Positions 8,932 through 63,239 of a DNA stretch of 63,887 bases are shown here, piece by piece; the stretch's first letter is position 1; every line of letters begins with the position of its first letter. Origin of the DNA: Welwitschia mirabilis. Its lineage: Eukaryota. The notes beneath the pieces are model-generated. The model searched no databases. It was not told the origin of the DNA and saw only the letters and a program-made list of their open reading frames with translations. A program made the position numbers and the translations under genes. The DNA lies in the NCBI GenBank assembly GCA_051453625.1, contig JBOZIK010000001.1:12439171-12503057 (forward strand). Direction: 5' to 3'.

Positions 8932-9725
8932 TGATGACTCAAAAACAGATGTACATTTATGCTATGTTCTTGATAAATTAATGAAGAATATGTTAAAATA
9001 TTAGCAATACATTATGATATTATTATAATATATTATGGATTATTATAAGTCAACTTCATAATGCAGGTTAGTTAGGTGGAGTTGTGCAATAAAAAGGGAA
9101 AGCGATTATAACAAATAAATAAGTGGCACAATGGAAGGAATAACAAACTTATTTCAACTAAACCTATAAATATGCATTATATATGAGGCAAATGGATCTT
9201 TTCAGAGTCTTGGAGAAGAGTTAGAAAGCACATATAAGGTGAAGACATCACATTGGAAGAACTGTAAAGTGACTTCTTAAGCTATTGTACTTGTTATGGA
9301 AACACAAGAAATGGCTAATTACTATATTTTCTTAATAAGTAATACAAGCTATGTTATTTTGAAAAGAATCTTGTGTTGTTGAAGTATGTAACTTTTCCAA
9401 GTTACATACTAGTGTATTAGTTAGAAATAATTGGTACATATAATCTGGCTATGTGTTCTTTGTTCTAGTTACTTTTATTTTCCCATATCCTATAAATTAT
9501 TATTTATAAGTAGAGTAACTATCAGAGCACACTTTATCAAGAATAAGAAAGTCTTTATTTGAGTTAAAATCAAAAATAAAAGTAATTTCCATATAAAAAT
9601 AATTAATGATTAAAGTCTATATGTAGATGTGATAATTTAGTTGTATGTTTTTCTAGCATTTTGTTAATATAATGGCTTCTTTTTAAGCATTTTGTTGAAA
9701 CTATTTAATTATTATATGCTTGTAA
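8932..9725 (+). repeat. LTR1 (5' LTR of A)
   Basis: tgatgactcaaaaac...gcttgtaa, homologous to LTR2 and LTR3. Internal TATAAATA at ~9165. Confidence 0.85.
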
Positions 9726-9728
9726 TTT

Positions 9729-9746
9729 TGGCACTAGAAGGAGGGC
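9729..9746 (+). promoter_or_regulatory. Primer-binding site, tRNA-Asn(GTT)
   Basis: TGGCACTAGAAGGAGGGC is a CpG-decayed TGGCGCTAGAAGGAGGG, complementary to the plant tRNA-Asn 3' end (CCCTCCTTCTAGCGCCA, recalled from memory). It lies 3 nt after the LTR. Confidence 0.8.
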
Positions 9747-9769
9747 ACTTCTAGAATTATGTCTAAAAT

Positions 9770-12700
9770 AATGAAGGACCTTTTAAGAAAAGACAACCTA
9801 GGATAAAGGAGAGATGAAAAGGAATGATATGTCCAAAACCCTAAAAAATACAAATTGGATGAAGTAACTAGTAATATAGCAATAACTGAAATTGACTCCT
9901 ATGACTTCATAGAAGATATGAAAACACTTAAGAGAGGTTAAATAGAGTTACAACATGAGATAGAACTATTAATAAAAACTCAAAAAAGAAAAAGAAAAAG
10001 CACAAGAACTAGAAGGATTGTATTGGGATGAAGAAAAAGTAGTCGATTCTACTTGTTTGTGTATTAACTATTATACATCTCATGCACCTAACTGTATAGA
10101 TACTATAGTCTTGGAAACTCTTGGTAAGATAAAAAAGAAACATAAATACTACTAATATTTTCACTTTTTAAGGTAGAAAAAAATGAAGAACCTATGCTTC
10201 ATTTGAGCCTTTTTTATTCTTTTTTCAAGGCTAAATAATTAGAAATCAACTCACATTTCTTGAGACATTTCCCTTTTTTCTTAAAAGAAGATGTCTAGCT
10301 ATGGTTTCATAGATTCCCAACCTATAATTTTAAAACTTGGAACTCTATGAGGTCAGTATTTTTGAACAAATATCAACTTGTAAGGGTCATTAAAGATCTG
10401 AGAGATTAAATTTTTAATATTAAACAGAAAGAAATGAAAAATTTGATGAATTTATGGATAGATATTAGATTTTACTGGCAAGATGTCCAAACCATGGGAT
10501 AACTCCAAGAAAACAAATGAGAGCCTTGTTAAGAGGTTTATCGAGTGATTCTTTANNNNNNNNNNNNNNNNNNNNNNNNNNNNNNNNNNNNNNNNNNNNN
10601 NNNNNNNNNNNNNNNNNNNNNNNNNNNNNNNNNNNNNNNNNNNNNNNNNNNNNNNTTATAGATTTTTGTTTGAAGTAATTAATGCCCTTTTGAAAAGAGA
10701 TAACCAAGAATGATGGAGGGATGAAAAGGGATGATATGTCCAAAACCCTAAAAAATACAAATTGGATGAAGCAACTAGTAATATAGCAATAATTGAAATT
10801 AACTCCTATGACTTCATAGAAGACATGAAAACACTTAAGAAAGGTTAAATAGAGTTACAAAATAAGATAGAACTATTAATACAAACTCAAAAAAGAAAGA
10901 GAAAAAGCACAAGGACTAGAAGGATTGTATTGGGATGAAAAAAAAGAAGTCAACTCTACTCATTTGTGTATTGACTATTATACATCTCATGCACCTAACC
11001 TTATAGAACCTGTAGTCTTGGAAACTCTTAGTAAGATAAAAAATCAACATAAATACTACTAATATTTCCACTTTTTAAGGTAGAAAAAATGAAGAACCTA
11101 TGCTTTTTTTGAGTGTTTTTATTTTGCAAGGATAACTAATTAGAAATCAACTCACATTGCTTGAGACATTTCCCTTTTTTCTTAAAAGAAGATGCCTAGG
11201 TATGGTTTCATAGATTCCCAAACTATACTTTTAAAACTTGGAACTCTATGAGGTCAGTACTTTTGAATAAATATCAACTTGTAATGATCATTAAAGATCT
11301 AAGAGATTAAAGTTTTAATATTAAATAGAAAGAATGTGACAAATTTGATGAATTCATGGATAGATATTAGATTTTATTAGTAAGATGTCCAAACCACAGG
11401 ATAACTCTGAGAAAAAAAATAAGAGCCTTATTAAGAGGTTTACTTGAGCCTTGTTAAGAGGTTTATTAAGTAATTCTTTAGANNNNNNNNNNATAGAAAA
11501 ATTATATAGAATGATAAGGGATGGACTTAAAGTAAAGAAAAAGGAAAGAGAAATGTTAAGAATCTTCTGATAGAAAAAGAAATGGAGACTAAACATGCAA
11601 GCATGTTAGAAGAAACTAATAAAAGAATAGAAGATCTAAAGGTAATATTAATAGATTAAAATAAGAAGACAAAGTAGAAACTTATGAATATTATAATGAG
11701 AAGAATCATCATCCCATAGGATGTCCAGGGATAAAAGGTTTTGTGGAATGGTTAGATATTAATAGAACTAGTTATAGTCCTNNNNNNNNNNNNNNNNNNN
11801 NNNNNNNNNNNNNNNNNNNNNNNNNNNNNNNNNNNNNNNNNNNNNNNNNNNNNNNNNNNNNNNNNNNNNNNNNNNNNNNNNACCTAGAACACTGAGAAAT
11901 GCAAATTAGATGAAGTAATTAGTGATACAGCAATAACTGAAATCGATCTATATGACTTCATGAAAAATATGAAAATACTTAAATGAGATTAAATAGAGTT
12001 ACAACATAAGATAGATCTATTGATACAAGCTCAAATAAGAAAAGAAAAAGTGAAAGAACTAGAAGGGTTATATTGGGATAAAGAAGAAATAGTCAATTCT
12101 GTTTCTTTAGGTATTGACTATTATACATCTCATGCATCTAATGCTATAGATCTTATAGTCTTAGAAACTTCTGATAAGATGAGAAACATAAATACTACTA
12201 ATATCCCCACCTTTAAAGTAGAAAAAATGCAGAACCTATGCTTCAATTGAGTCTTTTTTATTCTTTTTGCAAGGCTATCTACTTAGAAACCAATTTAAAT
12301 TTATTGAGATATTTCCCTTTTTCCTTAAACAGAGATGCCTAACTATGGTTTCATAGATTCCCAAACTATACTTTTAAAACTTGAAACTCTATAAGGTAAA
12401 CATTGTTAAATAAATATCAACTTGTAAGGGTCATTAAAGATCTGAAAGATCAAATTTTAAATGTTAAATAGAAAGAACATAAGAAATTTGATGAATTCAT
12501 GCATATATATTGGATTTTATTAGTGAGATATCCAAATCATGAAATAACTCTTAGAAAATAAATGAAGGCCTTGTTAAGAGGTCTGCAAAATAATTCTTTA
12601 AAGAAACTAAATATTCTTCATGGAGGAAGCATCAGGAATGGTAGCATCCAAGAGATTAAAACTACTATAGATAAATTATATAGAATGCGTTAGGAATGGA

Positions 12701-15700
12701 CTCAAAATGAAGAAAAAGAAAAAAGAAAAATTAATGAAGTCCTTCTAGAGAAAGGAATATAGACTAAGCATGCAAGCATCTTAAAAAAAACTAATAGATG
12801 AATCATCATTCTTTAGAATATCCATGAATAGTAGACTTTGTAAAATATTTAAAAATTAATATAATTAATTATAATCCTAACAATATTCCTTAGATTAAGA
12901 AGAAGCTGTATCCTAATCAAACTAGAAAATGGAAAGACAAGAAAGAAACTCCAATACAGAGATTTATGCAATCTAAGAGATATGATTATTTTACAAATTG
13001 GAGAAATGTAGAAAAAGAATTTCATCACAATTAATAATTAGCTAAAGGGGAAAAAACTAAAAGAATCTTCTATACCTACACAACCCCAACAAAATACAAG
13101 AGAAGCTAGTTGTAAAGCTATTAGAACTAGATCAAGTAGAAGCCATATTTCACTCTTAGAAAAGAAAAAGAAACTAGGAAAAATAAAAGTATGATTAAAA
13201 ATGGTTTAATAGAAGAAGAAATGGATGATTCTTTACCATTTCCAATGAGAAGTAAGATAATAAAAAAATTTCAAAGAAAGGAGAAAACAATGTAGAATAC
13301 CTTCTCAAAGCTCTGCAAGATATCTCAGTTATCTTACACTTACTAAAAATATTGAGAGACATCCCCTTGTATTAGAATAAAATCAAGAAGTTGTGTAGAA
13401 AAGAGGGGAGTAAGAAAAATAAAGAGAAAACTAATAATGAACAATTAATAAATGAATCAACTAAAAGAGTTTAGGTATTTTGGGTCATTTTCTCAAGATC
13501 TACAAGGAAATTAAACTGAGAAGTATAGTAACACTAGAATATCAATAGTAAATATAATTATTGAAGGTTCCTATAAAATAGAAGCTTTGATGGATTTAGG
13601 GATGAGTATTAATCTCATTTTCCATGACATATTTGAATAACTTATAAGTCTTCAGTATAATGAATGAGTTTATATGACAGATGGCTCTATAGTAAAGCTA
13701 GAGGGAATAATGGAGAATACCTTAATAAACCTACAAGGATTCAGATATCTAGTATATTTAGTTATTATGAAGACAAAAGAGAATACTCACCCTATTATCC
13801 TAGGAGTACCTTTGATGGAAACAACTAATGCAAGTATTTATTCCAAGAAGGAAGTAACAGAGATTAGTTTAAAATATTTGGTTCAGCAAATAAAAATACC
13901 TAATGAGGTAGAAATTGAACACCCCTTTACTAACAAGGGGGATAGTATAACATGATCCTCTAAAAATAATCTGAACAATTATTAGAAGACTAAGAAGTTA
14001 AAAGAAGAGACTAATTCTTAACTATTAACCTAGTAGAAAAAGAAGAGAAACTTGAGAAACTTTTTCTTGAAGAAGGTTTAGGATACATTAAAATTTAGAA
14101 AAACAAACCTTTTAGTATCAATGAGAATTTGACTCATTCTTAAAAGAGAAAATTATAAAGGATGTTGACTAAATGGACTAATTTTTTTACTTGGACTCAT
14201 AAAGATATTACTAGAGTAGGCGTACAATATGTCAACATAGAATTTATTTAGATACCATAGAAAAGCAAGTGAGGTAACTAGAAAGGAGATGTAATTCTCA
14301 TACACAAGATGTAATAAAGAAGGGATTACTTATCTCATTTATGATTTAGAATGGGTAAGTCCTATGATAGTAGCTCCTAAAAAGAATAATAAGTAAAGAG
14401 AGTATACATAGATTTTAGGCTACTAAATGTTGCTACTAATAAGGATCATTTTACCTTACCCTTTGAGGATGATGTTTTAGAAAGAATTTCTCATGATAAA
14501 TACTATAGTTTCTTGGATGAGTATAGTGGATATAACCAAATTCTCATAGCTCTTGAAGACCAAGCAAAAACTACATTTACTTGCAAATCAGGTACATATG
14601 GTTTTAAATGTTTACCTTTTGGGTTATGTAATGCACAAGTTACTTTTCAAAGACTAGTGAATAGTATTTTCCAAGACATGATAGGAAGATTAGTTGAGGT
14701 TTTTGTAAATGATTTCTTAACCCTTGAAAATGATTTTGAGGAAGATTTGAAAAGACTAGAAGCTATACTTACTTGATGTAAAGAAAAGAAATTAAAATTG
14801 AGTTGGTCTAAAAGTCATTTTATGGTGGGTAAAGGTATTGTTTTAGGCCATAGGATATTAGTAAGAGGAATTAAAAATAATAAGAAAAATATTAGTTTTC
14901 ATTAGAAAAATTCCTCCACCAACTAAATTCAAAGAACTAAGATCATTTTTTCATCATGTGGTGTATTATAGAAGATTCATTGCTAATTTTAGTAAAATTA
15001 CTAAACCAGTAGATAATCTTTTATAAAAATATGTGCCCTATGAATGGACCTAGTAATGACAAAAATATTTTTAAATTCCTAAAGATAAACTAGTTGAGGC
15101 CCTTATTTTATAAAAATTGGATTGGATCAAAACTTTTCACACTATAACTAATGCTTCACAGTATGCTATTACTATTGTTTTGGGCGAAAAGGATGATAAT
15201 TGTAAACCCTATGCTATCGCTTACATAAGTAAGAATATCAGTTATAGATTAAAAAACTACATAGTTATAGAAAAAGAGATTCTAGTCATAGTGGTAGCAT
15301 TAGATAAGTTTAGGCATTATATCCTAGGGTATGAGGTTAAAATTCACATAGATCATACTGTTATACAGCCTTTAATGAATAAGAAGACAGCAAATTCTTG
15401 AATCATAAGATGGATACTTTCTATGTAGGGATTTGATCTTCAGAAAATAGATAATAAGGAAAAAATAAAATGTGATAGCTGATCATCTATCTAGATTGGA
15501 ATTCCTAAAGAGGCTAAACAATTGGATACCTAAAATTGTTTTCTTGAGCATTTAGCAAATATGCAACAAACTCCTTGGTTTGCAGATATGGCTAACTTCT
15601 TAGTGAGTAAGAAGATACCTCCTTACTTAATCTATTATGAGAAAAAGAGGTTGTTAAGATAAGTAAAAAATTATATATGACAGAATAAGATCCTTTTCAA

Positions 15701-16887
15701 ATTTTATAAGGATGATGTCATTAGAAGTTATGTTGGTAAGCCTGATTAGAAGGAGCTTCCACAAACTTTTCATCCAAAGGAAGGAGGAGATCATTATAGA
15801 AAAAAATAACTACTATAAAATTTCTAAATGTAGGATATTATTGGCCTTCTTTATTTAAGGATTCTTTTAATTATACTAAAGGATGTAATAATTGTCAAAG
15901 AGATGGAACATGATCAAAGGTGATTTAAATGCTCCAATAATGGATTTAAGCCTTGGAACCTTTTGATGTATAGGGAATAGATTTCATTGGTTACATTAAT
16001 ACAAAATCCTATGAAAAGGAATACATTCTAGTTTGTGTGGATTATTTAACTAAATGGGCTAAAGATGAGGCTATTCCTAATTATTCCACTAAAACCATTG
16101 TCAAATTCTTATCTAAGAATATCTTTCATAGGTTCTTTATACTTAAAAGTCTTATGTCAGATAGAGAAACCTGTTTCACTAGTCAAGCCTTTGAAAAGTT
16201 TTTGTCTAAGTATGAAGTCTAACACAAACTCTCCTTAGCTTACCACCCCTAAACCAACGGTCAGGCTGAGGTTACAAATAGGGAATTAAATAGAATTTTG
16301 ACTATAATAGTAAACACTAAAAGAACTGACTCGGTATATAAACTTATTGAAGCTTTATGGGCCTATAGGTTAAGTTGAAAAAACATTATAGGTTTCACAC
16401 TCTATGAGTTAGTCTATAGCAAAAAAGAAACCTTGCCTATTGAATTAAGATTAACATCTTATAAATTGACTAAATAATTAGATTATGATTTGGATAAATC
16501 TCAAAAGGAATAATTCAAAACATGAATAAATGAGATCAAGATAAAAGAAAAACCTTAATAAGAAAAGAATAAATCCAAAATTAAGTAAAAGAGTGGAACA
16601 ACTATAATGTTCCAAAAACTAATTTCAAAATTGGAGATAGAGTTTTGGTTTTTGGTCCTAAATATATATCCTCTAAAAAAAATTACACTAAAAAATGGAT
16701 TGGACCATATACTTTAACAAAAATTCTACCTAATGGAGTAATGGAAGTATTTAATAAAGAAACTAAAGATACATATCAAGTCAATGGTCATAGAATCAAG
16801 ACTTATATAGAAGGAATTTCACTCTTAGAAGAAATTGAACAAACTTATAGGGTGGAAAGAATTCTACCCATATGTATTCCTCCATAA
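9770..16887 (+). pseudogene. gag-pol: Element A gag-pol (gag, PR, RT, RNase H, integrase)
   Basis: PR ALMDLG (~13585). RT LDEYSGYNQI..EDQAKTTFTC..LPFGLCNA..FQR (Athila-type). [58 protein letters not shown]. The gag start is present three times around N gaps. Confidence 0.9.
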
Positions 16888-17181
16888 TCCTATATTCTAT
16901 GATAAAAACATAATTAGAAATAATAATAAAAAATTAACAAGTAAATAAATAAATGATATGTTATAAGGTTTAACTTTTAAGAAAGGAAAATGGATGCTAT
17001 TTGAATTATAAGAAATTTTGTTTGATAAGTGAAAGTGTCTCTCAAAAGAATTAGTAAGACTTCAAGAAGGGAAAGTTATATATAATAAAAATGACTAGGT
17101 GATGAAGGAAAATAAAGATACCTATGCAATCATTTATCTTTTGTTTTATAAAAAAAGGGAAAAAAAGAAGAAGAGAAAACA

Positions 17182-17346
17182 ATGTCCTATCATAAGTACA
17201 TTTTGGCAAATATTCTCAAGAAGGGCCTTTGTCAGTGACTCCACCAAGGGATTAGTTGGTTATGATCTAAGTTTATAACTATGTAGGTTCTTGTCTCTAT
17301 GGTAGTAATTGTACTCTTCTTATTGCAACAGTATTTCTTAAAATAA
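17182..17346 (+). pseudogene. Accessory ORF1 of A: small peptide with a hydrophobic helix
   Basis: One frame reads MSYHKYILANILKKGLCQ*LHQGISWL*SKFITM*VLVSMVVIVLFLLQQYFLK; the stops are TGA/TAG, plausibly former TGG. Homologous to 58164-58334. Confidence 0.55.
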
Positions 17347-17759
17347 ATGCTCTTTGGCTTGAAATTATAAAGAAGACAATCACTATCCAAGTATCATCTG
17401 AGGAACAGTTAGTATCTAATATTTTCTTTAAGCCAAGTGAACCTCCAAAGGAAAAGTAAATATTACACCCCATACTGATTTTTTATTTTAACATTTAAAA
17501 CATTTAAATAAATGTATCTTTCTTCTATTTATCGTGAATCAATAATTTTTTGTGAAGATAAAAAGGCTTGACATTCAATTAATTTTTATAATTTGGTATA
17601 ATAAAAATGAGTACTAAAATAAAAGCAGATTATTATTAGTTACAATATGAAATAAAAAGAGTTTTAATCAAAAAATACATTTATTTTATTAAAGCAACTA
17701 AATCTAAATAGATAACAACTAAAGCAAAAAACTAAAATAAATTGAAATTAATCTCATGG

Positions 17760-18560
17760 GATCTTAGAAAACTTGATGCCTGTACTTATTCTTCCTCCTA
17801 AACCTATACTAATTAGATGTTTCTATGAGAGGAGGAAAAGATAAGCAGTGTAGGAAGTTAGTAATAGTCTTAATCTCTATAGCATGGGCATAGCAGAAGT
17901 TCTAATAAACTAATTCATCCAAGGGTTAATATTTTTTATAGGTAATTCTCATCAAAAGAGAGAGTATAAAGGCTTAGATTTAGATTGTTACCTTTTTTTT
18001 GCTATAACCTTTACTCTAATTCATGAATCTAACTTAAACAATGCCCTAATAAAGAATCATACCTATTAGACTCATCAATTAGAATAGAACTCAGCTTGAC
18101 AATCTAGATTTTCAAATACTCTGTACATAAGTAATCAACTATTGAATCAAAGTAGGGTGGAATTTCTCCATGGCTAAATTAATTCCTTCCATTATTTTAG
18201 AGGATGTCACCCAAGGAATTGAGCACCTCAGAAACTAAACTATAGGAATACTTTGCATAGAAATCTTCTATACTCATAATGTTCATATTTATCTAAGAGG
18301 ATCTTAAGCTAAATAGACAGCATTTAAATTTCTTAATAAGAGGAGAAGTAAGCAAGTTATTAGAACTATAGGCCATCTCTAATCTAGATATCAAGAGAAC
18401 TTGATTTAATTTTGTAAATGTGTGTTGAGTGAAATTATTCAAGGCATTGTAGTATACTTATACCTAGAAAGTAACAGTAAAGAAAACCATTCATAATTTC
18501 AGGTTTGATTGAGTCTTGGACATACCTGAGATGCTAATTTATGAGAAGTTAGAAGAGATC
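17760..18560 (-). pseudogene. Accessory ORF2 of A: antisense ORF of unknown function
   Basis: VLNSLGDIL*NNGRN*FSHGEIPPYFDSIVDYLCTEYLKI*IVKLSSIL...GNNLNLSLYTLSFDEN aligns with the antisense ORF at 58700-59340. Confidence 0.65.
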
Positions 18561-18654
18561 TATTTAATCCAAAAAATCCTAGATTAAACTCTGCTTCTTC
18601 TAACTAAACTATAAATGCCATGTCAATTGTGACTTTGTCCCCAGTCAAATTTAT

Positions 18655-19920
18655 TAATTTAAAGGACCTTCTTTAAGAAATATTCATTGCTCAAAGGCCT
18701 TCTTGAAATCTTAAACAATTTGAATATTCTATTTTTGATGACATGTTAAAAGGTACATATCATCTGTTGAAGACCCCTTTGATAAATGACTAACCTCATT
18801 CAATGGTGTCTTCAAAAACCTCTAGTGTCTTTGCTTCTTTCCCTTTTTACTCTCAGTGTGAGCTTGAAGGCCCCCTTCAAGCAACCTTCATTATGCAAAG
18901 ATTCCCTTAAACCTCTATATTTAGTGTAGTAGGAATAAATTGAATAATGAGTTAGCTTTGTCTTCCTCCTAATTTATCACTCACTTCTCGAGCCCGTTTT
19001 AGATGATCAAAGACCTCCTTTGCATAATTACTTGACTAATATGACATTTTATGGATTTCTAATTAAATATCCACTTTGGAAGAAGAAATCCTCCCTTAAA
19101 TTTTTATGTTCATAAATAAGAGCAAAAGGGTAAATTGAAGTCATAATAAATTCTTTAAAAACCTTGCCAATGACTCCTTGAAAGATTTTTTTTTTTTTTT
19201 GTTTGAAAAACAACTTTAAGATTAGTCTTTGTTAGATAATTCTTTTGAAGAAGCAATTTGTACTCAAAGGACCCATTTTAGCAACCTACATTACTCAAAG
19301 ATCCCCTTAAAGAAAGTAATTGCTACTAAAATCTAGAAGAGACTTTGTAATCTAAATTTTAAACAGAAAACATGTATTAAAAAGCTAAATAGAATACCTA
19401 ATGAAATGGACAACTACTATGATAAACTTCAAATAGTATTTTCTAGAGAGTGAACTAATAGAAAGTTAGATAAAATAAATATTATGAAAATAGCTCTTAC
19501 TAGTAGGAAAAAAAGCATCTATGAAAAAAACAATAATAGCAGTAGTATTAAATGGATTAGAATTTCAAAAGGAATTCTCTTAAGAAAGATTCTTATTCAG
19601 AGCTTTATGAAATTTGCAAAAAGAAACACATAGTCTATAGAATATAAAGTGTTTAATATAAGCCAAGGAAATTATAATTACATTTATATAATTAAGAGGT
19701 TAAAGGTACCAATTTTGGATAGTTCAAAGTACTAAAATTGAGGCAAGAATCTGTAACTTCCACTCTATTAAGTTGCTTCATCAATTTGAAGGATTCTTTT
19801 GAGGAAGTAATTATTACTCGAAGCACCCCTCTAAGAAATATTTATTGCTTGAAGATTCTCTTTGAAGATGTAATTACTACTGAAAGGATACCTTTAAATA
19901 GTTGAAGGCCTTCTTTGAGC
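18655..19920 (+). repeat. Clusters of a degenerate ~30-bp repeat in the spacer of A
   Basis: Units resembling ttRctcRaaggaYYYYtttRagaaRtaat at ~18655-18710, ~19236-19330 and ~19784-19920. Confidence 0.55.
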
Positions 19921-20325
19921 CCTGATGGGAGGAAGAGACAAAAGTAGACTTTTATATCATATTTTATTAATACCCCATTTGACGACTTTGACCACCCTTT
20001 CATCAGAAAATGTAGCAAGTCAAACTTCAACACATAGTAGGGAGCTTCAAATTTCTATAAATAGAACATCGCGATAGGTAAATTTTTATTTCAAGTTTGT
20101 TTTTAGTGAACAATTTGCTTTGTCATCTTCCAATTGCATGTGAAAACATCATGAAAACCTCCTCTATTGTCTCTTTCGTAAATTCAAAAAAATGTTATTT
20201 TAGGTTAAAGCATTTAAATTAAGAATGTTTTTTACATAGTTAAATACTTTAAGTTCTTTAAAATGCATTCTATTTTCTTCAATAAGATATTAGATGAGTG
20301 CTTGGAGTTTAATGACAATTCTTAT

Positions 20326-21470
20326 ATGAGTATTTCATATAAGAAAGCAATTGAACTCCAAAGCTAAATAGTAAAATATTTTCTACAAAAGTTAAAACTT
20401 TTTCTAGTTTAAATTTTAGAAAACTTCTAAAAAACCCTGTTTCACTAGACTTGGATAATGAATAATTAAACTTAACTAGTGAAATTGGTTAACATTTTCA
20501 AAAAAATACAATAATGAAAAAGTATACTCTTTCTATAGAAACATAAATTTTTTAGAGAAACTACCAACATTATACTCATCAGTTATTAATGTACTGATTT
20601 AGATTTTACTGGATGAAATAAAGATGATTTTTTGGGTACCATCTAGTGAAAGATTATTATCAAAAATGTGTAACAATAAGGACATCACATTATGTCTAAA
20701 ACATTTTTGCAATATCACTAATAAAGATGGATGAGTTGACATTGATAAGGTAAGGGATCCTGAGGTATTTTTCATTTCTAGAATGCTATTCTTGAATCTA
20801 GACCTAATCATCAATAAGAAAAAGGACATGAGTATACTAAGAGTACATTTAGTGGATGCCATTAAAAATCCCTCAAGCAAAAATATTAACATTGGGTTCA
20901 ACATCTTTCAATATTTATGTAAACCATAATCTAGAATAAAATACACTACGACGATTACAAAGGTTGGACTAGGATATTCATTACTGATCCTAAGGACTCT
21001 TTTAGATAGAAATATTCTATAATTCTTTCCAAGAAAAATAAGTAGCATGGAACTTTTAGTCATATTCTTATTTGGAGTTTTGGTTCTAACACCCTTTAGC
21101 ATTCTAGACACATAAGAGACACCTTCAACTAGATAGCTAGTAACATAAATTTAAACATAACTTCTAGGTCCTTCCATGGATCAAGCAAATACATTTACTT
21201 TATAGCAATTAGAGCTGTAAAAGGAAATAAAATCTTTTACAAAGTTATTAGAAGAATATAAGGAGGATTCTTTATGTGCTACTATAAATTCTTTAACTGG
21301 CTTCCTACTAGAAAAGAATAAATTACCAGAAGAAAATATTAGTTTAAAGAAAAAGGTTAAATTTTTGGAACTATAGAATAAATTTTGCAAAAATAATTTT
21401 TTCCCCTTATCACAAAGAATGGGATAAAGCAAAGGAGAAAAAGTAGCAGCTAGTGGAGAGATTAATCACT
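20326..21470 (+). pseudogene. Accessory ORF3 of A: plant-transposon/env-like (PF20167-like) ORF with a coiled-coil tail
   Basis: YNNEKVYSFYRN...RDPEVFFISRMLFLNL...INIGFNIF...VGLGYSLLI...KVKFLEL. Homologous to 30243-31370 (DNA level) and 61050-63120 (protein level). Confidence 0.6.
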
Positions 21471-23946
21471 CATTTTAAATCTCATAAGTCAAATAGCTCC
21501 TCTCTACATAATGCTTAAGTTTAAATTGAGGAATTAGAGCAAGAACTCAAAGAGGAAAAAGAGAAACTATAGCTTCCTTCCCCTCTATAATAGAGAGAGA
21601 ATCATTAATATTGCTATTTATGTTATGATCAATTGTATTAATAATAAATGCTTAAGAGTTCTTCTAACACTTATTGTAGACCATCACTATGTGATAGATA
21701 GAGGGATATGTAAATTTACTCATACACTAAATATTATTAATGGACAATGAATATGAAATAGCTTACGGTAATGCTCCTATGCCATGATGGAATTATTTAT
21801 AGTAAAGCAATATATAATAAAATAAAAACAATGTTAAAATCTCATTTTTTAATTTTAATTTACCTATTATATGTGTGTATTGTAACTTCTTATTAGTTTT
21901 AATTTTAGCTAATTAAATACATAAAATTAAGAATATCTATCTTAGGTGAAACCTCGTCATCATAGATAAGGTCTGTCTCATCTTTATTTTTACTAGTTCC
22001 ACTTAAAATATGATGGTATGATTGTTTTCTTTATTTTTGTTTAGTAAATAAAGTTATCCTTTATTATTTTTAGGCTTCCACCCTTATGTTGATAAAATTA
22101 TAGATGCAAAAATTAGTAAACTTCCTTCTTTATATTCAAAATTATAGAATTTTTTAGGCAAATGTAATAAGAGCATTGTTTCTAATGCTCCAAACCCTTA
22201 TACTCCATTTTTCCTAAATATATTCTTCTTCTATTTTTAAGAAATCTACTTCTAATTAATTTTAATTTAACCTTTTACCATCATAATGTTGTAGAATCCC
22301 TATTTCTTAGAATATTTTAACATTCCCTCTCTAGTAAAGATATTTCTCTTAAATTAGTTTTTTGAAATAATGGTGGTCTATAAGAACAATTTTGATATGT
22401 TCCATGGTAAACATCCGATATATAATAGAAAAGCTAATGAAATCTCCACTATAAAGGCTTCCATTCCATCATCCCTTATCACATAACTTACTATTACATG
22501 GCCTACCACAATCAATACACCCTGATAGGAGTAGAAAAGGGAGGAATTTTTAGAGGCTACCATCATTCTAGAACAAGATTATAAATGGCTAAAAATCATT
22601 TAGATCAAAATTGTATAAGAAATTATTCATTGTAGCTTTATTTTATTTTTTAAGCCAACACATAGAGAGAACTATACTAGTTAACTTATAGAATTTTATT
22701 ATAGGATAACCATACATTACCAATATCTTATCAATGATAATCCTAATCAACTTGAATAAGAAACCATCATTTGATGTCATATGGGTCACATTAAAATTGA
22801 TATTATAAAAGGTTTCTTATACAAAAATTATAGCATTTCATCCAAGGGAATCCACTTTACATTGATTAAGGAGTAAGAAAGAAAAAAAAGAATATTTTAT
22901 AGATCTTATAGGAGAATAAGTCACCTTTAAGGCTTTAACTTTAGCCTTTGAAGATGGGATATTTATTTAAATAATCTTTCCTTAGACATGTATGTTTTTT
23001 ATACTTATTACCATTAACATTCATTCCACAATACACATTTATTAACCTTATGACATTTCACACTATATTAGTGTTGGTGTTATACAATGCAAAAGTGTAT
23101 AATTTTACTTAAACTATCATTAAGTTCATAAAATTAGTAGTCTAATCACCCATTATTATATCTTTTCCTTTCCTTCTTGCTACCATTTTATAATCTAGAA
23201 ATATATTCAAACCAACTCATGAGTCACTAACATAAATGATAAGTTTTAAAAAATGGATCTAAACATAATTCATCTCATTAAGTAGGCCTAAATTTAACCT
23301 CTAGAAGCACTAGCTTCTTTAGATACCACACTCATAAACCTTTTTCACTAAGTAACTTTAACAAGTTAGAGGGATAATATAAAATTAAAAATAATAATTA
23401 CAAGTTCACATGCAAACTTTAGAATTCAAATTGACCAAGCTTACTAATGAAGTTTAAGAAATTAAAATGCACATTGGATTTAAGATTGAACATGTAGCAA
23501 GTGCAATATCACCAGAGGATGGGAAAAGAATATCATGAAATGAATACCCCATGAATTTGTACTTTTACCTATTTTTATCATGAAATTGAAAGATTGATAA
23601 TGATTTTATAACCATTCAATTCAATTTTTGTAATTTTGTACTATGTACTTTGATTGGCATCTTAATATAATAAATGCTCTTTTCTACTATACACGTTATT
23701 TATTTTTAATAATTTCTTACTCCATAATAAATTTACTAACATACTAAATGAGATTAATTTAAACTATTAATTATTTTCTAACAAAGGGACTATCACAAAA
23801 AAAGAATAAGACTATGATAGCACTATAAATTTTAATTTTATCACATATTGTATCACATAGTTAAAACTTGAAATACTCTAAAGTACCCTTTACAAATGCA
23901 CTTAGAACCAAATATATTCTAGTTAGTTTACTTTAAAAAATGTTAT

Positions 23947-24870
23947 TGATGACTTAAATACAAATGTACATTTATGCTATATTCTTACCAAAGTTAATGA
24001 ATGATATGTCAAAATGTTAGAAATATGTTATGATATTATATGCTATGATATTATTATAATATATTATGTGTTATCTTAAGCTAACGTTGTGATGCAGGTC
24101 AGTTAGATGGAACCATGATACAAAAAGGGAAAGCGGTTGTAACAACTAGACAGGTGGTGCAAAAGAAGGAGTAAGAAACTCACTACAACTACATCTATAA
24201 ATATGCATTATAGAGGAGGAAAAAGGATCCTTTTGGAGTATTGTGAAGTCTTGGAGAAGAGTTGAAAAGCACATCTAAGGTGAAGAGATCACATTGGAAG
24301 AACTATAAAGTGACTTCCTAAGATACTGTACATGTTGCGAAAACATAGGAAGTGGCTAATTACTATTTTTCTTGATAAGTAATACAAGTTGTGTTATTCT
24401 AAAAAGAATATTATATTGTTAAAGTGTGTAATTTGGAAACATTGCATGCTATCATTTTCTTTCTCTTAATATTGATACTGGCTAGAGTTATTATTAAGAT
24501 AGTGTATCTATTACAATAATTGGTGTACATAATCTGGCTAGGTTTTCTTTGTTCTAGCTACTTTTATTTTCCATATCTTGTAAATTATTCTTTATAAGTA
24601 AAGTAACTGTAAAAACACCTTTTTGCTAAGAATAGTCATTCTTTGACAAAATATGTGTCTTGATGAAACAACAAAAGCTTTGTTTGAGTGAAAAGCAAAA
24701 AAACATAATCTCCATATAAAAATTATTAATGATTAAAGTCTATGTGTAGATTTGGTAATTTAAATGTATGGTTTTCTAGTATTTTATTAATTTAATAGTT
24801 CATTTTTAAGTATTTTGTTGAAACTGGTTAACTGTTTTATAGTATTTCTAGTTAAATTACAAGCTTGACA
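23947..24870 (+). repeat. LTR2 (5' LTR of B)
   Basis: tgatgactt...aagcttgaca (TG..CA ends), followed by a PBS. Confidence 0.9.
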
Positions 24871-24873
24871 TTT

Positions 24874-24890
24874 TGGCCTAGAAGGAGGGC
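24874..24890 (+). promoter_or_regulatory. Primer-binding site, tRNA-Asn
   Basis: TGGCCTAGAAGGAGGGC directly after LTR2. Confidence 0.8.
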
Positions 24891-24902
24891 ACTTCTAACC
24901 TT

Positions 24903-27900
24903 TTGTTTGAAACAGTAAAGGTATTTTTGACAAAAGACAATCAAGGAAGATGGAGAAATGAAAAGAAACAATATGTTCAAAACCTTAAAAAATACAAATT
25001 GGATGAAGCAATCAATGATACAATAATACTTGAAATTAACCCGTATGACTTTATGGAAGATACTGAAGCACTTAAAAGAGGTTAAATAGAGTTACAACAT
25101 AAGATAGACCTATTAATACAAACTCGGATAAGAAAGGAAAAAGTATAAGAACTAGAAGGGTTATATTGAGATGAATAAGAAATAGTCGACTCTACTCCTT
25201 TATGTATTGACTATTATACATCTCATGTACCAAACCTATAGATCCCATAATCTTCAAAACTTTTGATAAGATGAGAAATATAAATACTACTAATATCCCC
25301 ACTTTTAAAGGTAGGAAAAAAAATGAAAAACCTATGCTTCATTTGAGTCTTTTTTATTATTTTTACAAGGATAACTACTTAGAAATCAACTCAAATTTCT
25401 TGAGAGATTTCCCTTTTTTCTTAAATGAAGATGCCCAGCTATAGTTTTATAGATTCCGAAACTATATTTTTAAAAATTAGAACTCTATAAGGTAAGATTT
25501 ATAAATAAATATCAACTTGTAATGGTCATTAAAGATTTGAGAGATCAATTTTTAAATGTTAAATAGAAAGAACATAATAAATTTTATGAATTCATGCATA
25601 GATATTGGATTTGACTGGTAAAATGTCTGAATCATAGGATAACTCTTAGAAAATGAATGAAAACCTTGTTAAAGGTCTACAAAATAATTCTTTAAAGAAA
25701 CTAAATATTCTTCATAAGGAAAACATTAGAAATTGTATCATCCAAAAGATTAAAACCAATATAAATAAATTATATAGAGTGAATTAGGGATGGACTCAAA
25801 ATGAAGAAAAATGAAAGAGAAAAATTAATGAAGTTTTAGTAGAGAAAGAAATAGAAACTACACATACAAGCATGTTAAAAGAAACTAATAAAAGAATAGA
25901 AGCTCTAGTAGATGAGATTAATAAATTAAAACAAGAAGAAGAAGTAGAAATCTATGAATATTATAATGAGAAGAATCACCATCCTACAGAATGTCCATAA
26001 ATGGTAGAATTTATGGAATAATTAGACATTAATAAAATTGATTATAACCCTAACAATACTCCTTAGATTAAGAAGAAGTCGTGTCATAACCAAACCAAGA
26101 AATGGAAAGGTAAGAAAGAAACTTCAATATAGAGATTTATGCAATCTAAGAGATATGATTATTTTAGAGATTGGAGAAATATAAAAGAAGAAGCTAGTCA
26201 CAATTAATAACTAGATAAAGGAAAAAAACTTGAAGAATATTCTATACCTACACAACCTCATCCAAGTCCAAGAGAAGCTGGTTGTAAAGCTATTACAACT
26301 AGATCAAGTAGAAGTCATCTTTCACTCTTAGCAGCCAAAAAAAAAAAAAAAAAGGGAAATAAAAGCATGGTTAAAAATAGTTTAACAGAAATAGAAATGG
26401 ATGATTCTTTACCATTTCCAATGAGAAGATAAAAAAACATTTTTTAAAAAAAGGAGAGGAAAGGATGTAGAATACTTTCTCAAAGCTCTAAAAGATACCT
26501 CAACTATCTTACCCTTAGTAAAAATATTAAGAGACATCCCCTTGTACCAAAAGCAAATAAATAAGTTGTGTAGTAAAGAAGGGAGTAAGAAAAAGAAAGA
26601 GAAAACTAATAACAACCAATTAGTAAAGGAATCAACTAAAAGAGTTCAGGTATCTTGGGCCTCTACTCAAGCTTTGCAAAGAAATTAAATTGAGAAGTAT
26701 AGTAACCATGGAATACCAATAGTAGATATAANNNNNNNNNNGTGCCTATAAAATAGAAGCTTTGGTAAATTTAGGGATGAGTATTAATCTCACTTTTCAT
26801 GACATATTTGAACAACTTGGAAGTCCTCTGTATAATAAATTAGTTTATATGATAGATGGCCATGTAGTAAAGCCAAAGGAAATAATGGAGAATACCTCAA
26901 TAAAACTACAAGAATTCAGATACTTGGTGATTTAGTTATTATAAAGACAAAAGAGAATACTCACCTGTCATCATAAGGATATCTTCCATGGCAACAACCA
27001 ATGCAACTACTTATTATAGGAAGGTAGTAATGGAAGTTATTTTAAGAAATCTGGTATAGCAAATAAAAATATCTAATAAGGTAGAAATTAAAAATCCTTT
27101 AATAACAAGGGGGATAGTGTAACATGATCCTCCAAAAAGAATCTCAACAATTATTAGAAGAATAGAAGAGACTACTTATTGATTATTAAACTGGTAGAAA
27201 AAGAAGAGGATCTTAATAAACCTTCTCTTAAAGAAGGTTTGGGATACATTAAAATTTAGAAAAATAGATCTTTAATTATGAAAATTTGACTCATTCTCAA
27301 AAGAGTAAATTATAAAGTATTATGACTAAATGAACTAATGCTTTTACTTGAACTCATAAAGATATTACTGGGGTAGATCCTATAATATGTTAACATAAAA
27401 TTTATTTAGATGCCATAGTAAAGCCTATGAGGTAACTAGAAAGGAGATATAATTCTCATATGCAAAATCTGATTAATAAGGGATTTATTTATTCTATTTA
27501 TGATTCAAAATGAATAATTCCTATGACAGTAGTTCCTAAGAAGAATAATAAATAGAGAGTATGCAGAGACTTTAGGCTACTAAATGTTGCTGCTTATAAG
27601 GATCATTTTTCCTTACCCTTTATGAATTAGGTTTTAGAAAGCATTTCTTGTCATAAATACTATAGTTTTTTAAAGGAGTATAGTGGATATAACCAAATTT
27701 CTATACCTCTTAAATACTAGACAAAAACTACTTTTACTTGAAAATGGGGTACATATGCTTTTAAATGTTTACCTTTTGGATTATGTAATGTACTAATCAC
27801 TTTCCAAAGGCTAGTGAATAGTATTTTCTAAGACATGATAGGAAAGTTAGTTGATGTTTTCATCGATGATTTCTTAACCTTTGGAAATGATTTTGAGGAA

Positions 27901-30017
27901 GGTTTAAAAAGACTAGAAGCTGTACTTACCCAATGTAAAGAAAACAAATTAAAAATGAACTGGTTTAAAAGTCATTTCATGGTGGGTAAAGGTATTATTT
28001 TAGGCCACAGGATGTCAGCAAGAGGAATTAAAATTGATTAGAAAAATACTAATGTCATCGAATAAATTCCTTTATCAATTAAATTGAAATAAATAAGATC
28101 ATTTTTACATCATGTGAGGTATTATAGAAGATTCATTATGAATTTTAGTAAAATTACTAATCCATTAAGTAATGTTTTACTAAAAAAATGCCTTATAAAT
28201 GGACCTAAGAATGCTAAAAAGATTTTTAAATTCTTAAATATAAACCACTTGTAATTCTTATTTTACAAAAATTATATTGGAACAAATCTTTTCACGTTAT
28301 GTCTGATTCTTCATAGTTTGCTAGTGGTGTTGTTTTGGATCAGAAGAATGATAATTGTAAATCCTATGTTATTGTTCACATAAGTAAGAATCTGAATATT
28401 GCATAATCAAACTACAAAGTTGTAGAAAATGAGATGCTAGCCATCTTAGTAGCCTTAGATAACTTTAGGCATAATATCCTAGGGTATAAGGCTAAAATTC
28501 ACATAGATCATAATGCTATATGGTTTTTAATGAACAAGAAGGAAGAAAATTCTTATATCATAAGATGGAAACTTTTGATGCAGGAATTTGATCTCAAGAT
28601 AATAGATAAGAAGGGAAAAAAGAATGTGGTATCTGATCATCTATCTGGAATCCCCTAAAGAGGTAGAACAATTGGATAGCTAAAATAATTTTCTTGATGA
28701 GCATTTAGTATGTGTGCAACAAACTCCTTGGTTTGTAGATATTGCTAATCTCCTAGTAAGTAAGAAGATACCTCCTTGCTTAATCTATTATGAGAAAAAT
28801 AGGTTGTTAAGAGAAGTGAAAGATTATACACGAAATAACAAGATCCTCTTCAGATTTTGTAAGGATGGTTTTATTAGAAGATGTGATGATGAGCTTGATC
28901 AGAAGGAGCTTCTACAAACTTTCCATTCAAAGCAAGAAGGAGATCATTATGGAGGAAAAGGAATAGCTATAAAAATTCTAAATGTAGGATATTATTGGCC
29001 TTCTCTATTTAAGGACTCTTTTAGTTATACTAAAAGATGTAATAAGTGTTAAAGAAAGGAAGTATGATTAAAGATGATTTAAATGTTCCAATAATGGATT
29101 CAAGAATTAGAGTCCTTTGATGTTTTGAAAATAGATTTCATTGATTCCATTAATCCAAAATCCTATAAAAAAGAATACATTCTAGTTTGTGTGAATTATT
29201 TAACTAAATGAGCTAAAGCTAAGGCTATTCCTAATTGTTATACTAAAACCATAGTCAAATTCTTATCTAAGAATATCTTTTACAAGTTTAGTATGCCTAA
29301 GAGTCTTATATCAGATAGAGGGGTCCATTTCACTAGTCAAGCCTTTGAAAAGTTTTCGTCTAAGTATGAAGTCCATCATAAACTCTCCTCTGCTAACTAC
29401 CCTTAATCCAATGGTTAGGATGAGGTCACAAATAGGGAATTAAATTGAATTTTGACTATAATGGGAATAATAAAAGAACTAATTACTAAATCTTTATGGG
29501 CCTATAGGATAATTTGAAAAAACATTATAGGTTTCACACCCTCTGAGTTAGTTTATGATGAAAAAAGAAATGTTGCCTATTAAATTAAGATTAACATCTT
29601 ATAAATTGGCTAAATAATTAGATCATGATTTGGATAAAGATCAAAAGGAATGGATCCAAAACATGAATGAATTAGATGAAGATAGAATAAAAGCCCTAGT
29701 AAGAAAAGAATTAATCTAAAAACAAGTGGCACAACTATAATGTTCAAAAAACTAATTTCAAAATTAGAGATATAGTTCTGTTTTTAAAATATAAATCTAT
29801 ATCGTCTAAATAAAAGTAACTCAAAAATGGATTAGACCATATACTTAAATAAAAATTCTATATAATGGAGAAATGAAAGTGTTTAATAAAGAAAAAAGAC
29901 ACATACCAAGTCAATGGTCATAGAATCAAGACTTATATAGAAGGAATTTCACTTTTAGAAGAAACTGGACAAACTCATAGGGTGGAAAAGATTATAACCA
30001 TATGTCTTCCTCCATAA
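24903..30017 (+). pseudogene. gag-pol: Element B gag-pol
   Basis: Collinear with A. RT VDVFIDDFL, RH MLAILVALDNFRH..RWKLLMQEFD..NVVSDHLS, INT zinc finger PWFVDIAN..H..HYGG..GYYWPSLFKD..C..C. Confidence 0.9.
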
Positions 30018-30242
30018 TCCTATATTCTATGATTAAGAAAAACATTAGAAATAATAATAACAAACAAATAAGAAATAAATAAATAAATAATATGCTATGA
30101 GGTTTAAATTTTAAGAAAGGTAAANNNNNNNNNNNNNNNNNNNNNNNNNNNNNNNNNNNNNNNNNNNNNNNNNNNNNNNNNNNNNNNNNNNNNNNNNNNN
30201 NNNNNNNNNNNNNNNNNNNNNNNNTTTAATAGTAATTCTTAT

Positions 30243-31370
30243 ATGAGCATTTCATATAAGAATAAGATTGAACTCCAAAGCTAAACTATAAAATATGTTT
30301 TTGTATAAGTTAAATTTATTTCCATTTCAAATTTTAAAAAACTTCTTAAAGATGTTAGTTTTACCATACTCAAATAATGAATAATTAAACTTAACTAATG
30401 GGACTAGTTAACATTTCTAGAAAGTATAATAATGAAGAAGTATCATCTTTTTATAGAAAGATGATATTTTTAGAGGAATCACCAATATTATACTCATCAT
30501 TCAATCATGTACCAATTCAAAGTTCATTGGGTAAAATTAGGATGATTCTTTAGGTATCATTAAGTGGAAGATTATTATCAGAAACATGTAAAAATGAGGA
30601 CACCACCTTATGTCTAAAACATTTTCATAGTATCACAAATAAAGACAGATTAGTTAACATTAATAAGGTAAGGGATCCTAAGGGATTTATCATTTCCAAA
30701 ATAGTATCTTCTAACCTAGCTCCAATCATCAACAAGAAAAAGAACATAAGTATATTAGTAGTACACTTAATAGATTCCATTAAAGATCCCTCAAGTGGAA
30801 ATATTATTATTGTATTCAACATCTTTAAATACTTATGTAAATTAGTGTCTACAATCAGAAACACCACCATGATTATAAAGGTTAAACTAGGATTTTCATA
30901 ACTAATTAAAAGGATTATTTTAGATAGAAATGTTCCATAATTCTTTCTAAGAAAAATAAGTAGCATGGAATTCTCAGTCGCATCCTTATTTGGAGCTTCG
31001 ATTCTAATACCCTTTAGTATTTTAGGCATAAAAGAGACATCTTTAACTAGTCAATCAATGATACAAATTCAAATACACAAGATCCTTCTAGGAAATAAGT
31101 CGATACATTTACTTTATATAAAGTGGGGCTATAAAAGAAAGCAGAATCCTTTACAAAGTTACTGAAAGAAGATAAGGTGATTTTTTTATGTGCCACTATA
31201 AATTACTTAACCAGAAAAGACTAGCTATAGAAAGAAAAACTTAGTTTAAAGGAAAAAGTTAAATTTTTAGAACTAGAGAATGAATTTTAAAATATAAAAT
31301 TTATTTTTGGTAGGAAGAATGTGACAAAGCAAAGGAGGAGAAGTAGTTGTTAAAGGAGAGATTAATCTCT
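30243..31370 (+). pseudogene. Accessory ORF3, copy in B
   Basis: DNA homologue of 20326-21470, ending KVKFLELENEF. Confidence 0.6.
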
Positions 31371-31499
31371 CATTTTAAATCCCAAAAGTTAGACAAGTTC
31401 TCTCTACACAATGTTCAAGCTCAAATTAAGTAATTAGAGTGAGAACTTGGAGAGGAGAAATAAAAACTATAGCTTTCCCCTATTAATAACAAATATTTT

Positions 31500-33342: not shown

Positions 33343-34407
33343 TAATGACTCAAAAATAGATTTACATTTATGCTATGTTCCTACCAAATTAATGAAGAAT
33401 GTGTTAGAATATTAGCAATATATGATGATATCATTATTATATATTAAGAATTATTATAANNNNNNNNNNNNNNNNNNNNNNNNNNNNNNNNNNNNNNNNN
33501 NNNNNNNNNNNNNNNNNNNNNNNNNNNNNNNNNNNNNNNNNNNNNNNNNNNNNNNNNNNATGAAGAATGTGTTAGAATATTAGCAATATATGATGATATT
33601 ATTATTATATATTAAGAATTATTATAACTAAATTTGTATGTAGGTTAGGTAGATGAAGTCATGCTACAAAAATGGAAAGCAACTGTAACAGCGAGATAGG
33701 TGGCATAAAGGAAGGGATCACAAACTCACTATAACTACACCTATAAATATGTACTATGAAGGAGATAAATGGATATTTTTGGAGTCTTGCAGAAGAACTG
33801 GAAAGCATGTCTAAGGCGAAGATGTCGCATTAAGAGAACTATAAAGTGACTTCCTAAGCTATTGTACATGTTTCAAAAACATAGGAGGTGTCTAATTACT
33901 ATATTTTATTAATAAGTAATACAAGCTTTATTATTATGAAAAGAAACTTTTGTTGTTAAGTGTATAATTTGGAAAAGTTACATGTTGTCTTTTCTTACTC
34001 TTAATATTTATATTAGTTGGAGTTAATACTAAGATAATGTGTTAGTTAAGAATAATTGGTGCACATAATCTAGCTATGTTCTCTTTGTTCTAGTTACTTT
34101 TATTTTTCCATATCTTATAAAGTATTATTTATAAGTAGAGTAACTATCAAAACATCTTTTTTCCAAGAATAGTCATTTTTGACAAAGTATGTATCCTAAT
34201 GAAATAAAAAAGTCTTTATTTGAGTTAAAAGTAAAAGAAACATAATCCCCATGTAAAAATTATTAATTATTAAAGTCTATGTGTAGATGTGGTAATTTAG
34301 TTGTATGTTTTTCTATCATTTTATTAATATAATGATTTCTTTTTAAGGATTTTATTGAAACTAGTTAACTATTTTATAGTATTTTTAGTTAAATTACAAG
34401 CTTGTGA
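33343..34407 (+). repeat. LTR3 (3' LTR, pairs best with LTR1)
   Basis: taatgactcaaaaa...aagcttgtga, followed directly by the Tekay RT. Its 3' end is repeated at 34787-35045 after a gap. Confidence 0.85.
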
Positions 34408-47200: not shown

Positions 47201-47449
47201 ACATACCCATCCTAGATCTAATCTAAAAGAAAATTTTAATCTAAAAAAATTAAAGGAAACTAGAATTTTAAAAGAAAAGGATTATCCAAAGTTATGTTTG
47301 AAAAGTGGCTCAAGAGTATGAAAGGGAAGGTTACATGATTGTTCAAAATTATGTAAACATTCTAAATTGAGAGAGAATCCCTAAAATCAAAGAGGACATT
47401 AGTACAAGTAGTAAAGTTTATGCATTCAAAGTTAGAAATAGTCCATCCT

Positions 47450-49392: not shown

Positions 49393-50077
49393 TGTTTGAT
49401 GTCAGTTTTTACAATTTATAAAATTAAGACCCTTATTATAGCAAAGTCTTGATCTCATTCTTCCCATAGGAATAAATCAAGTTAGTACTAAATAGAGGTG
49501 ATACAATGTTCTCTAAACCTATAAGAAATTAAAAAAATGAAAATCAAAGTTTTAATGAGATTGAATTTTTGATGGTAATGTGGGAAGACAAACTAAGTAT
49601 AGAGGTATAGCTTAAATAATTTAACAACAAAACCTTTANNNNNNNNNNNNNNTATAACTTTCTGAAATAAAGGTTAAATTTGTAAGTCATTATGGCTTAG
49701 ATCATGGAATCGCATTCATCACATAAGTATTGGTGGATTTCTTAATCCCTTCGGTATTTCATAACATAATGTAAATATGGACAGTAATTACTAATGTGAT
49801 CAAGATCCATCAAATAAAATGACTACAACTACAAGTAACCTCAAGAAACTTGCTCTATTATGAAAAAACTCAACAATGTAGTTTTACATAATCATTAAAA
49901 GTATAAGGCTAATCCCAACTTAAAATAAAAATAAAAAACTACTACTTTTTATTAAAAACAAAAATTATGTTACATTGGAGGATGAAAGAAAATCTAATAT
50001 AAACTCTTCAAAGCTAGCTTTGAAGCTAGCTCACTTTCAAAAATGGAGCTCAAAAATCCATTTTAATGGTTGATGCT
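49393..50077 (-). repeat. 5' LTR of the element D family, interrupted by element C
   Basis: Homologous to 4512-5190. Homology stops at the start of C's LTR. Confidence 0.7.
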
Positions 50078-51015
50078 TAATGAGTAAAGATAATTATGTA
50101 AATTTTTATCATTAATAAAATGTTTTTATTCTTATAATTATATATTTTAGATGGTATTTGATATTTTTCTTTAGTATTAAGAATAACTTGCTAGCTATTT
50201 ATTGGGTGGGTTAGTTTTATATATATATATATTATGTTACACATACAAAATACCATTTGACATGAGGATGAGGAAGAATACCAAGGTGGTAAAAATACAG
50301 CAACAAATTTAATAATAAACGTATTCTTTAGGAGCAAAGAAAGGAAAGGGCAAAATAGAAAGGGAGCTAAAGGGTATATGAAGGGGGATCACCACAAAGA
50401 GGTAGGATCTTTTGGAGAAAAGGCTCTAGAAATAAAACTAAGTAAGAGGTCAAAAGAAAGCTTTAGATATTCTAAAAAGGGCATATCAGCATCTCTAATG
50501 TTTCAATGTTACCTACAAAGGAAAGCACAAACTTATCAGTATATTTCTATGTAACATTCTAGTATTTTAATATACAACTGAAAAGATAATATTTTTGAGA
50601 AGTATTATGAACATGTTTTACCACTTGAAAAAGTAATATCCTTTTTTGCTTGCTTCTATTTATGTTGCCAAACACAAATTAGGATGATTAGCGATATTTA
50701 AAAATAAGTATTATTTAGCATTTAGTGAAACTTCTATTATGTTTTCTTGATTTCCCATAATGTAATATATGTATATAGTAAACTCATTAATTATCAGCTT
50801 GGCTAGTTCAAGTAACTTCATCATGATTTTATCTTGATGATGTATTTTAAACTAAATGATTAAAGTATTAGTAATCTTAAATATTCTTTAGTAAACGTTT
50901 GATTGTAATTTAATGGTTTAAGCTTATTTCAGGTTTAGAGCATCATAGTTTTTTACATTTTTAAGCATAATTTCTTAGTATTTTTTAATTTATTTTACAA
51001 TATAATCTTACATAA
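50078..51015 (+). repeat. 5' LTR of C (second assembled copy at 51684-52637)
   Basis: t(a/g)at(g/a)agtaaagat...cttacataa, followed by a PBS in both copies. Confidence 0.7.
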
Positions 51016-51018
51016 TTT

Positions 51019-51036
51019 TGGTGCAAGAAGGGGGGC
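51019..51036 (+). promoter_or_regulatory. Primer-binding site, tRNA-Asn (second copy at 52641-52658)
   Basis: TGGTGCAAGAAGGGGGGC and TGATGCAAGAAGGAGGGC are decayed TGGCGCTAGAAGGAGGG. Confidence 0.7.
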
Positions 51037-63120: not shown

Positions 63121-63239
63121 TGTTTAACTCTCAGAATCATATAAGGACATGAGTAGAAAATTATACAAAGCATGTGAGTGAAATGTTAAATTATAAACAG
63201 CTGTTGAAGATAGAAATGAATTAGAAATTTTTCCAAAAA

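Follow-up and report, generated by a model that had tools for sequence, protein, structure and literature searches.

A decayed antisense reading frame behind pol, conserved at the protein level between two putatively Athila-like Ty3/gypsy elements of Welwitschia mirabilis

Extra ORFs are common in plant LTR retrotransposons and are almost wholly uncharacterised. For Ty3/gypsy elements, Neumann et al. distinguished 314 groups of extra-ORF proteins, and a conserved-domain match was reported for only 21.4% of the extra-ORF proteins of Ty1/copia and Ty3/gypsy taken together (PMC6317226). Typical domains according to the same source are PF10536 for Ogre, PF04195 for Retand and PF03078 for Athila; what sets Tat apart from Athila is a second RNase H, placed between RH and integrase in Ogre and Retand. 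A review lists antisense extra ORFs located after pol and before the 3' LTR in maize Grande, rice RIRE2, Silene Retand, Phaseolus PvRetro13 and fungal Boty, and gives their function as unknown (PMC7264820). It credits Grande gene23 with a promoter of its own and a product found in the nucleus, and an antisense transcript from an internal promoter has been reported for both Grande and Retand. Among recently active Retand elements, antisense ORFs with Transposase_28 were found in 97% of clusters (PMC11963269), and Tat lineages III and V are reported to carry antisense ORFs with a plant mobile domain (PMC4408406). Sunflower Athila 14 is described as having two extra ORFs: ORF(+), of 487 aa, with PF20167, a family said to be related to PF03078; and ORF(-), of 70 aa, with one central membrane helix and no known domain (PMC11728184). 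Extra ORFs that run antisense in this position have already been published for plant Ty3/gypsy elements. The case described here adds one such ORF and opens no long-standing question.

We studied a window of 63,887 bases, by which we mean the whole stretch of Welwitschia DNA that was analysed. It is very A+T-rich (G+C about 25% throughout) and contains 35 runs of N. The assembly here is a rough draft, and near-duplicates of 90–96% identity bracket many of its 100-N gaps. Direct near-duplicates at such gaps, for example 50002–51507 versus 51608–53129, 45181–46212 versus 46315–47344 and 34149–34684 versus 34789–35318, look like unmerged overlaps or haplotypes, not real repeats. A threefold repeat at 9749–12803, upstream of the first gag in the window, is of the same kind. 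Under the standard code no frame of at least 150 codons is open except near the window start or where it runs through N runs. The low G+C had prompted a trial of the ciliate code (table 6), which was dropped given the plant affinity of the elements and their general decay.

Three element copies are termed A, B and C here, and all three are degenerate plant Ty3/gypsy elements. For copy A we scanned the plus-strand frames of 12000–20300 with Pfam, reading stops as X, and traced a degenerate gag-pol over 12310–16249 (plus strand, coordinates computed from residue numbers). It comprises a sub-threshold Retrotrans_gag (12310–12588), RVT_1 (14396–14854), RT_RNaseH (15129–15431), Integrase_H2C2 (15812–15904) and rve (15959–16249), all on the plus strand. 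These domains stand in Ty3/gypsy order and are spread over three stop-rich frames. Copy B is 76–85% identical to A, in blocks 12792–16990 of A with 25964–30124 of B, and 20308–21592 with 30225–31488. Copy C, whose RNase H lies at about 56140–56400, has nucleotide matches to A only at RT/RNase H (about 66%) and at the C-terminal end of pol (65.7% over 437 nt by blastn). The latter region, on the plus strand at 16364–16872 of A and 57421–57930 of C, fixes the collinearity of the two copies; its best protein block, A 16660–16872 versus C 57718–57930, has 32 of 71 residues identical (E 1.6e-12, six-frame comparison).

Self-blastn, with boundaries then read in the sequence, placed the 5' LTR of copy A at 8932–9730 (plus strand, end approximate) and a second LTR at 23947–24875 (plus strand); a third LTR copy was found by self-blastn from 33345 to about 34412. 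From the LTR starts at 8932, 23947 and 33345 we conclude that A and B form a tandem in which the middle LTR is common to both, as 3' LTR of A and 5' LTR of B, giving the layout LTR, body, LTR, body, LTR over 8932–34412. The sunflower study describes such a tandem arrangement for other elements (PMC11728184). In both A and B a TGG-led motif of about 17 nt lies 3–4 nt past the LTR end (within 9718–9760 and 24876–24900), in the place of a primer-binding site, which it resembles.

Of 620 candidate proteins, 31 matched the RT of copy A at E≤1e-5, led by one with E 1.6e-54 and 52% identity. These relatives are plant polyproteins, and every species-named one is from a plant. Neither a chromodomain nor a second RNase H (PF00075, PF13456) appears in the precomputed Pfam annotation of any of the 31, and Pfam matched neither in the element copies themselves. 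From the end of RT_RNaseH at 15431 to the start of the integrase zinc finger near 15737, copy A has about 100 codons, the size of an ordinary linker and too little to hold a second RNase H. From pol to the next LTR it is about 7 kb in A, and we found no tandem-repeat array in 16300–24000. Lack of a second RNase H, lack of a chromodomain, a long region outside the polyprotein and two extra ORFs are Athila-type traits of A. The long tail, the absence of chromodomain and second RNase H matches and a sense ORF resembling PF20167 (see below) together point to the Athila clade for A, B and C. The Athila label of the original prediction therefore fits indirectly, through the missing second RNase H and the PF20167-like ORF; it is an assignment by exclusion and by a sub-threshold Pfam match, not by phylogeny.

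The original prediction, made from the same DNA, was that an antisense ORF at 17760–18560 of A is conserved in C at 58990–59150 and had once been a functional gene opposite gag-pol. We compared A 16300–20300 with C 53500–63887 in all six frames. Three matches had E<1e-3, and two of these are collinear, namely the plus-strand pol end and a minus-strand match at the predicted place. The minus-strand match joins A 18397–17927 to C 59349–58843 in a gapped tblastn alignment with 49 of 171 residues identical and 80 of 171 positive (49.3 bits), at E 5e-9 in the region comparison and 6e-9 against the whole window. The third match, also minus-strand, is non-collinear (A 17165–16896 versus C 54221–53913, E 4.6e-4). 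Conservation was thus confirmed at both predicted places with changed limits: in A the conserved span is narrower, 17927–18397, with coding likely from an ATG at 18286, and in C it is wider, 58843–59349, with the ATG at 59244. A recount of the ungapped block first noticed gave the same 15 of 49 identities, and the second block then reported, G...LSL..LSFD.N, aligns as well; both fall inside the gapped minus-strand alignment.

Similarity of equal strength in other frames had been named as the finding that would speak against a gene. In Smith-Waterman comparisons of all 36 frame pairs the minus-frame pair scored 138 and the other 35 at most 52, and the best other-frame match overlapping 17700–18600 reached 22.7 bits and was non-collinear. 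Scores between low-complexity translations are inflated by A+T-richness, so with 25% G+C one might suspect a chance product of skewed composition. However, residue shuffles, which keep composition, averaged 29.9 (sd 4.6, maximum 56) and in none of 1000 trials reached 138; the same was true of 1000 nucleotide shuffles (maximum 50). We give chance next to no credence.

Codon positions tell which strand was coding. Nucleotide identity between the two copies of the antisense ORF is 74, 94 and 56 of 155 at positions 1, 2 and 3 (48, 61 and 36%), where composition alone would give 27–29%. The contrast among positions is significant (chi-square p 9e-5; Fisher p 2e-5 for position 2 versus 3), and the pol end, used as a control, has the same order (43, 55 and 24 of 71). 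A sense-strand reading would put the least conserved position first, so the minus strand is the coding strand. Within the ORF blastn found no nucleotide match between A and C, even at word size 7; what is conserved is therefore the protein. The same data bear on the idea that the conservation is non-coding, as an RNA or DNA signal, or belongs to a sense-strand gene, with the antisense frame as its echo. Two observations lean that way: the second-best Smith-Waterman score, 52, is that of the codon-aligned opposite strand, and a block conserved at the nucleotide level lies nearby (core 17238–17269 in A and 58239–58270 in C, 87.5% of 32 nt). Yet 52 compares poorly with 138, a least conserved first position (56 of 155) is unlike coding sequence, and inside the ORF there is no nucleotide-level match, so that an echo is very improbable. 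Past selection on the antisense ORF at the protein level is, from these patterns, a sound conclusion.

Selection also has to be weighed against mere inheritance. The ancestor of A and C might have taken up, on a single occasion, part of a host gene or of some other mobile element that it never put to use, so that the similarity would reflect no more than shared descent from a coding sequence. LTR retrotransposons are documented to transduce host sequence, and such events have been considered as a source of extra ORFs (PMC7264820, PMC11963269). Third positions are saturated, at 36% against 29% expected, yet positions 1 and 2 have kept their excess of identity; without selection, divergence to saturation should have erased it, which argues against capture. 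Nor was a donor gene seen when a HMMER profile built from both antisense copies was run against 1.84 billion representative proteins, with no match at E≤0.001. Unused capture is, in our judgement, quite unlikely.

The profile search, which the original prediction had proposed alongside its statement that no family could be assigned, was one of several to find no relatives. Pfam at E≤10 matched no family with either of two read-throughs of the antisense ORF. A word-index protein search, which covers proteins of 84–270 aa only, yielded five candidates and none at E≤0.01; the ESM Atlas gave no usable match, and the best PDB sequence had E 0.44. Plant transposon ORFs are probably under-represented in these libraries and both queries are decayed, so the blank means that no family can be assigned, not that the family is unique. 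It also means that nothing ties the ORF to any published family of antisense ORFs. AlphaFold2, given the two-row alignment, returned a mostly helical but unusable model (mean pLDDT 43, pTM 0.26). We found no hydrophobic 19-mer conserved between the copies: the Kyte-Doolittle maximum over 19 residues is 0.78 in C, and the value of 1.65 in A comes from an unaligned, stop-containing tail. Describing the product as helical and soluble rests on that poor model and this hydropathy scan.

Both copies of the ORF share an ATG at one aligned place (A 18286, C 59244), and ahead of it an in-frame stop occupies one and the same alignment column in both. The coding part likely begins at this ATG, and the weaker similarity upstream is probably leader sequence. 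The conserved part, of about 155 codons, ends near 17927 in A and 58843 in C. Copy A has nine in-frame stops over the 140 codons 18286–17867. Copy C has six over the 154 codons 59244–58783; its first 84 codons (59244–58993) are open, the longest open run of either. With both copies broken there is no sign of a working gene in this genome now. The ORF was assessed in A and C and is present in both, the counterpart in B falling in the N gap 30125–30224. It does not reach the length used in surveys of extra ORFs, given as at least 250 codons (PMC6317226) or at least 600 bp (PMC11963269), but the copies are pseudogenes, whose length is a poor guide to the ancestral gene.

The limits of the conserved stretch leave some room for a longer antisense gene, perhaps a spliced one, of which it would be a single exon or the core domain. 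There is no clear C-terminal end. In C the sequence beyond the conserved span is cut off by the N gap 58335–58695, and decay, frameshifts and this gap could hide the rest of such a gene. Spliced antisense transcripts are raised in a review whose readers are urged to seek them (PMC7264820). On the upstream side, a weak minus-strand protein match joins A 19158–18829 to C 60892–60542 (score 64, reached by 2 of 300 shuffles). This could be an upstream exon or nothing; it fails correction for the 18 frame pairs tried, and in the six-frame comparison no further A/C match in the flanks of the ORF survives that correction. The common ATG, with the common stop just ahead of it, suggests instead that conservation begins at the start of the gene. 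We consider a longer gene unlikely.

Along copy A the order is the end of the pol block at 16872, the antisense ORF at 18286–17927 and the next LTR at 23947, and the order relative to pol is the same in C. From the 3' end of the ORF to the last conserved pol block is 1055 nt in A and 913 nt in C, the latter including the 361-N gap. It is this collinear position in two diverged elements, together with frame specificity and the codon-position pattern, that leads us to a once-functional antisense gene, as the original prediction had it.

A second ORF common to the elements lies 1.6–2.1 kb beyond the antisense ORF as seen from pol, on the plus strand, so the two point away from each other. It is found by tblastn at 20186–20869 of A (degenerate), at 30407–30787 of B and at 60845–61534 of C, with a partial duplicate of the C copy at 62071–62412 beside assembly gaps, detected with Pfam; all four are on the plus strand. 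Copies A and C of this sense ORF are 29.2% identical over 236 residues (E 4e-16, tblastn), and nucleotide identity at codon positions 1, 2 and 3 is 94, 100 and 57 of 162, in the same order as in the antisense ORF. PF20167 (Transposase_32) matches the C copy over profile positions 2–131 of 177 with E 5.2e-6, and its duplicate with E 1.4e-4; the scores of 26.9 and 22.2 bits are both under the curated cut-off of 45. The family is thus matched by two of four copies, both sub-threshold; A and B are unmatched and are tied to C by their tblastn homology. A word-index protein search with the sense ORF gave 199 candidates and none at E≤0.001. Besides PF20167, no convincing Pfam domain occurs on either strand of A 20300–23950 or C 59700–63887, and none on the minus strands of A 12000–20300 or C 57900–59700. 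Two weak matches in these flank scans were PF24849 (E 0.018) and PF11465 (E 0.042).

Set beside the described systems, the antisense ORF resembles Grande gene23 and the ORFs of RIRE2, Retand and PvRetro13, which are in the same place, antisense, conserved across diverged families and, as reviewed, free of clear protein relatives (PMC7264820). However, those elements are on the Tat/Retand side and have a second RNase H, whereas A and C do not; the copies here are broken and their conserved span is short. The Transposase_28 ORF of Retand (TRP28, PF04195) likewise runs antisense within a long stretch that separates pol from the 3' LTR, and is described as a hallmark of that lineage (PMC11963269). 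Copy A has neither a second RNase H between RH and integrase nor, in 16300–24000, a tandem-repeat array. PF04195 is absent at E≤10 from both antisense copies and from the minus strand of A 12000–23950 and C 57900–63887. This and the missing second RNase H speak against a Retand element with a TRP28 ORF. The plant mobile domain ORFs of Tat lineages III and V are, as described, also antisense and at the 3' end of non-chromovirus Ty3/gypsy elements (PMC4408406); again those differ from ours in the second RNase H, and PF10536 was unmatched in any frame scanned. Sunflower Athila 14 pairs a PF20167-type sense ORF with a small domainless antisense ORF, as do A and C (PMC11728184). Its ORF(-) is 70 aa with a membrane helix, compared with about 140 codons or more and no conserved hydrophobic stretch here, a comparison made by description only.

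Conservation, frame, position and decay of the antisense ORF are all direct observations on the two copies. The reading that we prefer, to which we give a probability of about 0.7, takes it as the pseudogenised remnant of an accessory gene, located between pol and the 3' LTR in an Athila-like lineage of Ty3/gypsy. The gene would already have been present in the common ancestor of the element families A and C. Selection on its protein would have kept it while the families diverged to about 29% amino-acid identity, and both copies in the window would since have decayed along with their gag-pol. By analogy with Grande gene23 and Retand, it may have had an internal promoter of its own in the 1.5–2 kb between the antisense and sense ORFs, from which transcription would have been directed away from the downstream PF20167-type ORF. 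The protein made, about 140 residues long or longer, would have been small, soluble and probably helical, with a part in the life cycle of the element. By the same analogy its likeliest roles would be in regulating transcripts or in nuclear steps, and an env-like membrane role is unlikely. Any specific function that might be proposed is far less probable than the accessory-gene reading itself.

A signature of selection between families, beyond the reach of nucleotide recognition, argues that the antisense ORF did something for the element. What it adds to the Athila-like architecture is an antisense gene known from two dead copies. More tentatively, and on balance we lean against it, the lineage would have had two divergent accessory genes behind pol, one from an uncatalogued family of antisense proteins and the other a sense gene of PF20167 type. 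If so, the layout would be like that of a complex retrovirus, in a clade usually described with only sense, env-like extra ORFs; and if intact copies existed elsewhere as well, in this genome or in related ones, the antisense protein would mark out a new family of retrotransposon accessory proteins, specific to its lineage.

The nucleotide-conserved core near the ORF belongs to a longer block, 17181–17324 in A and 58163–58327 in C, about 300 nt beyond the last clear pol block. The block scores in several frames and on both strands, and it may be where pol ends after a frameshift, or else a signal acting in cis.
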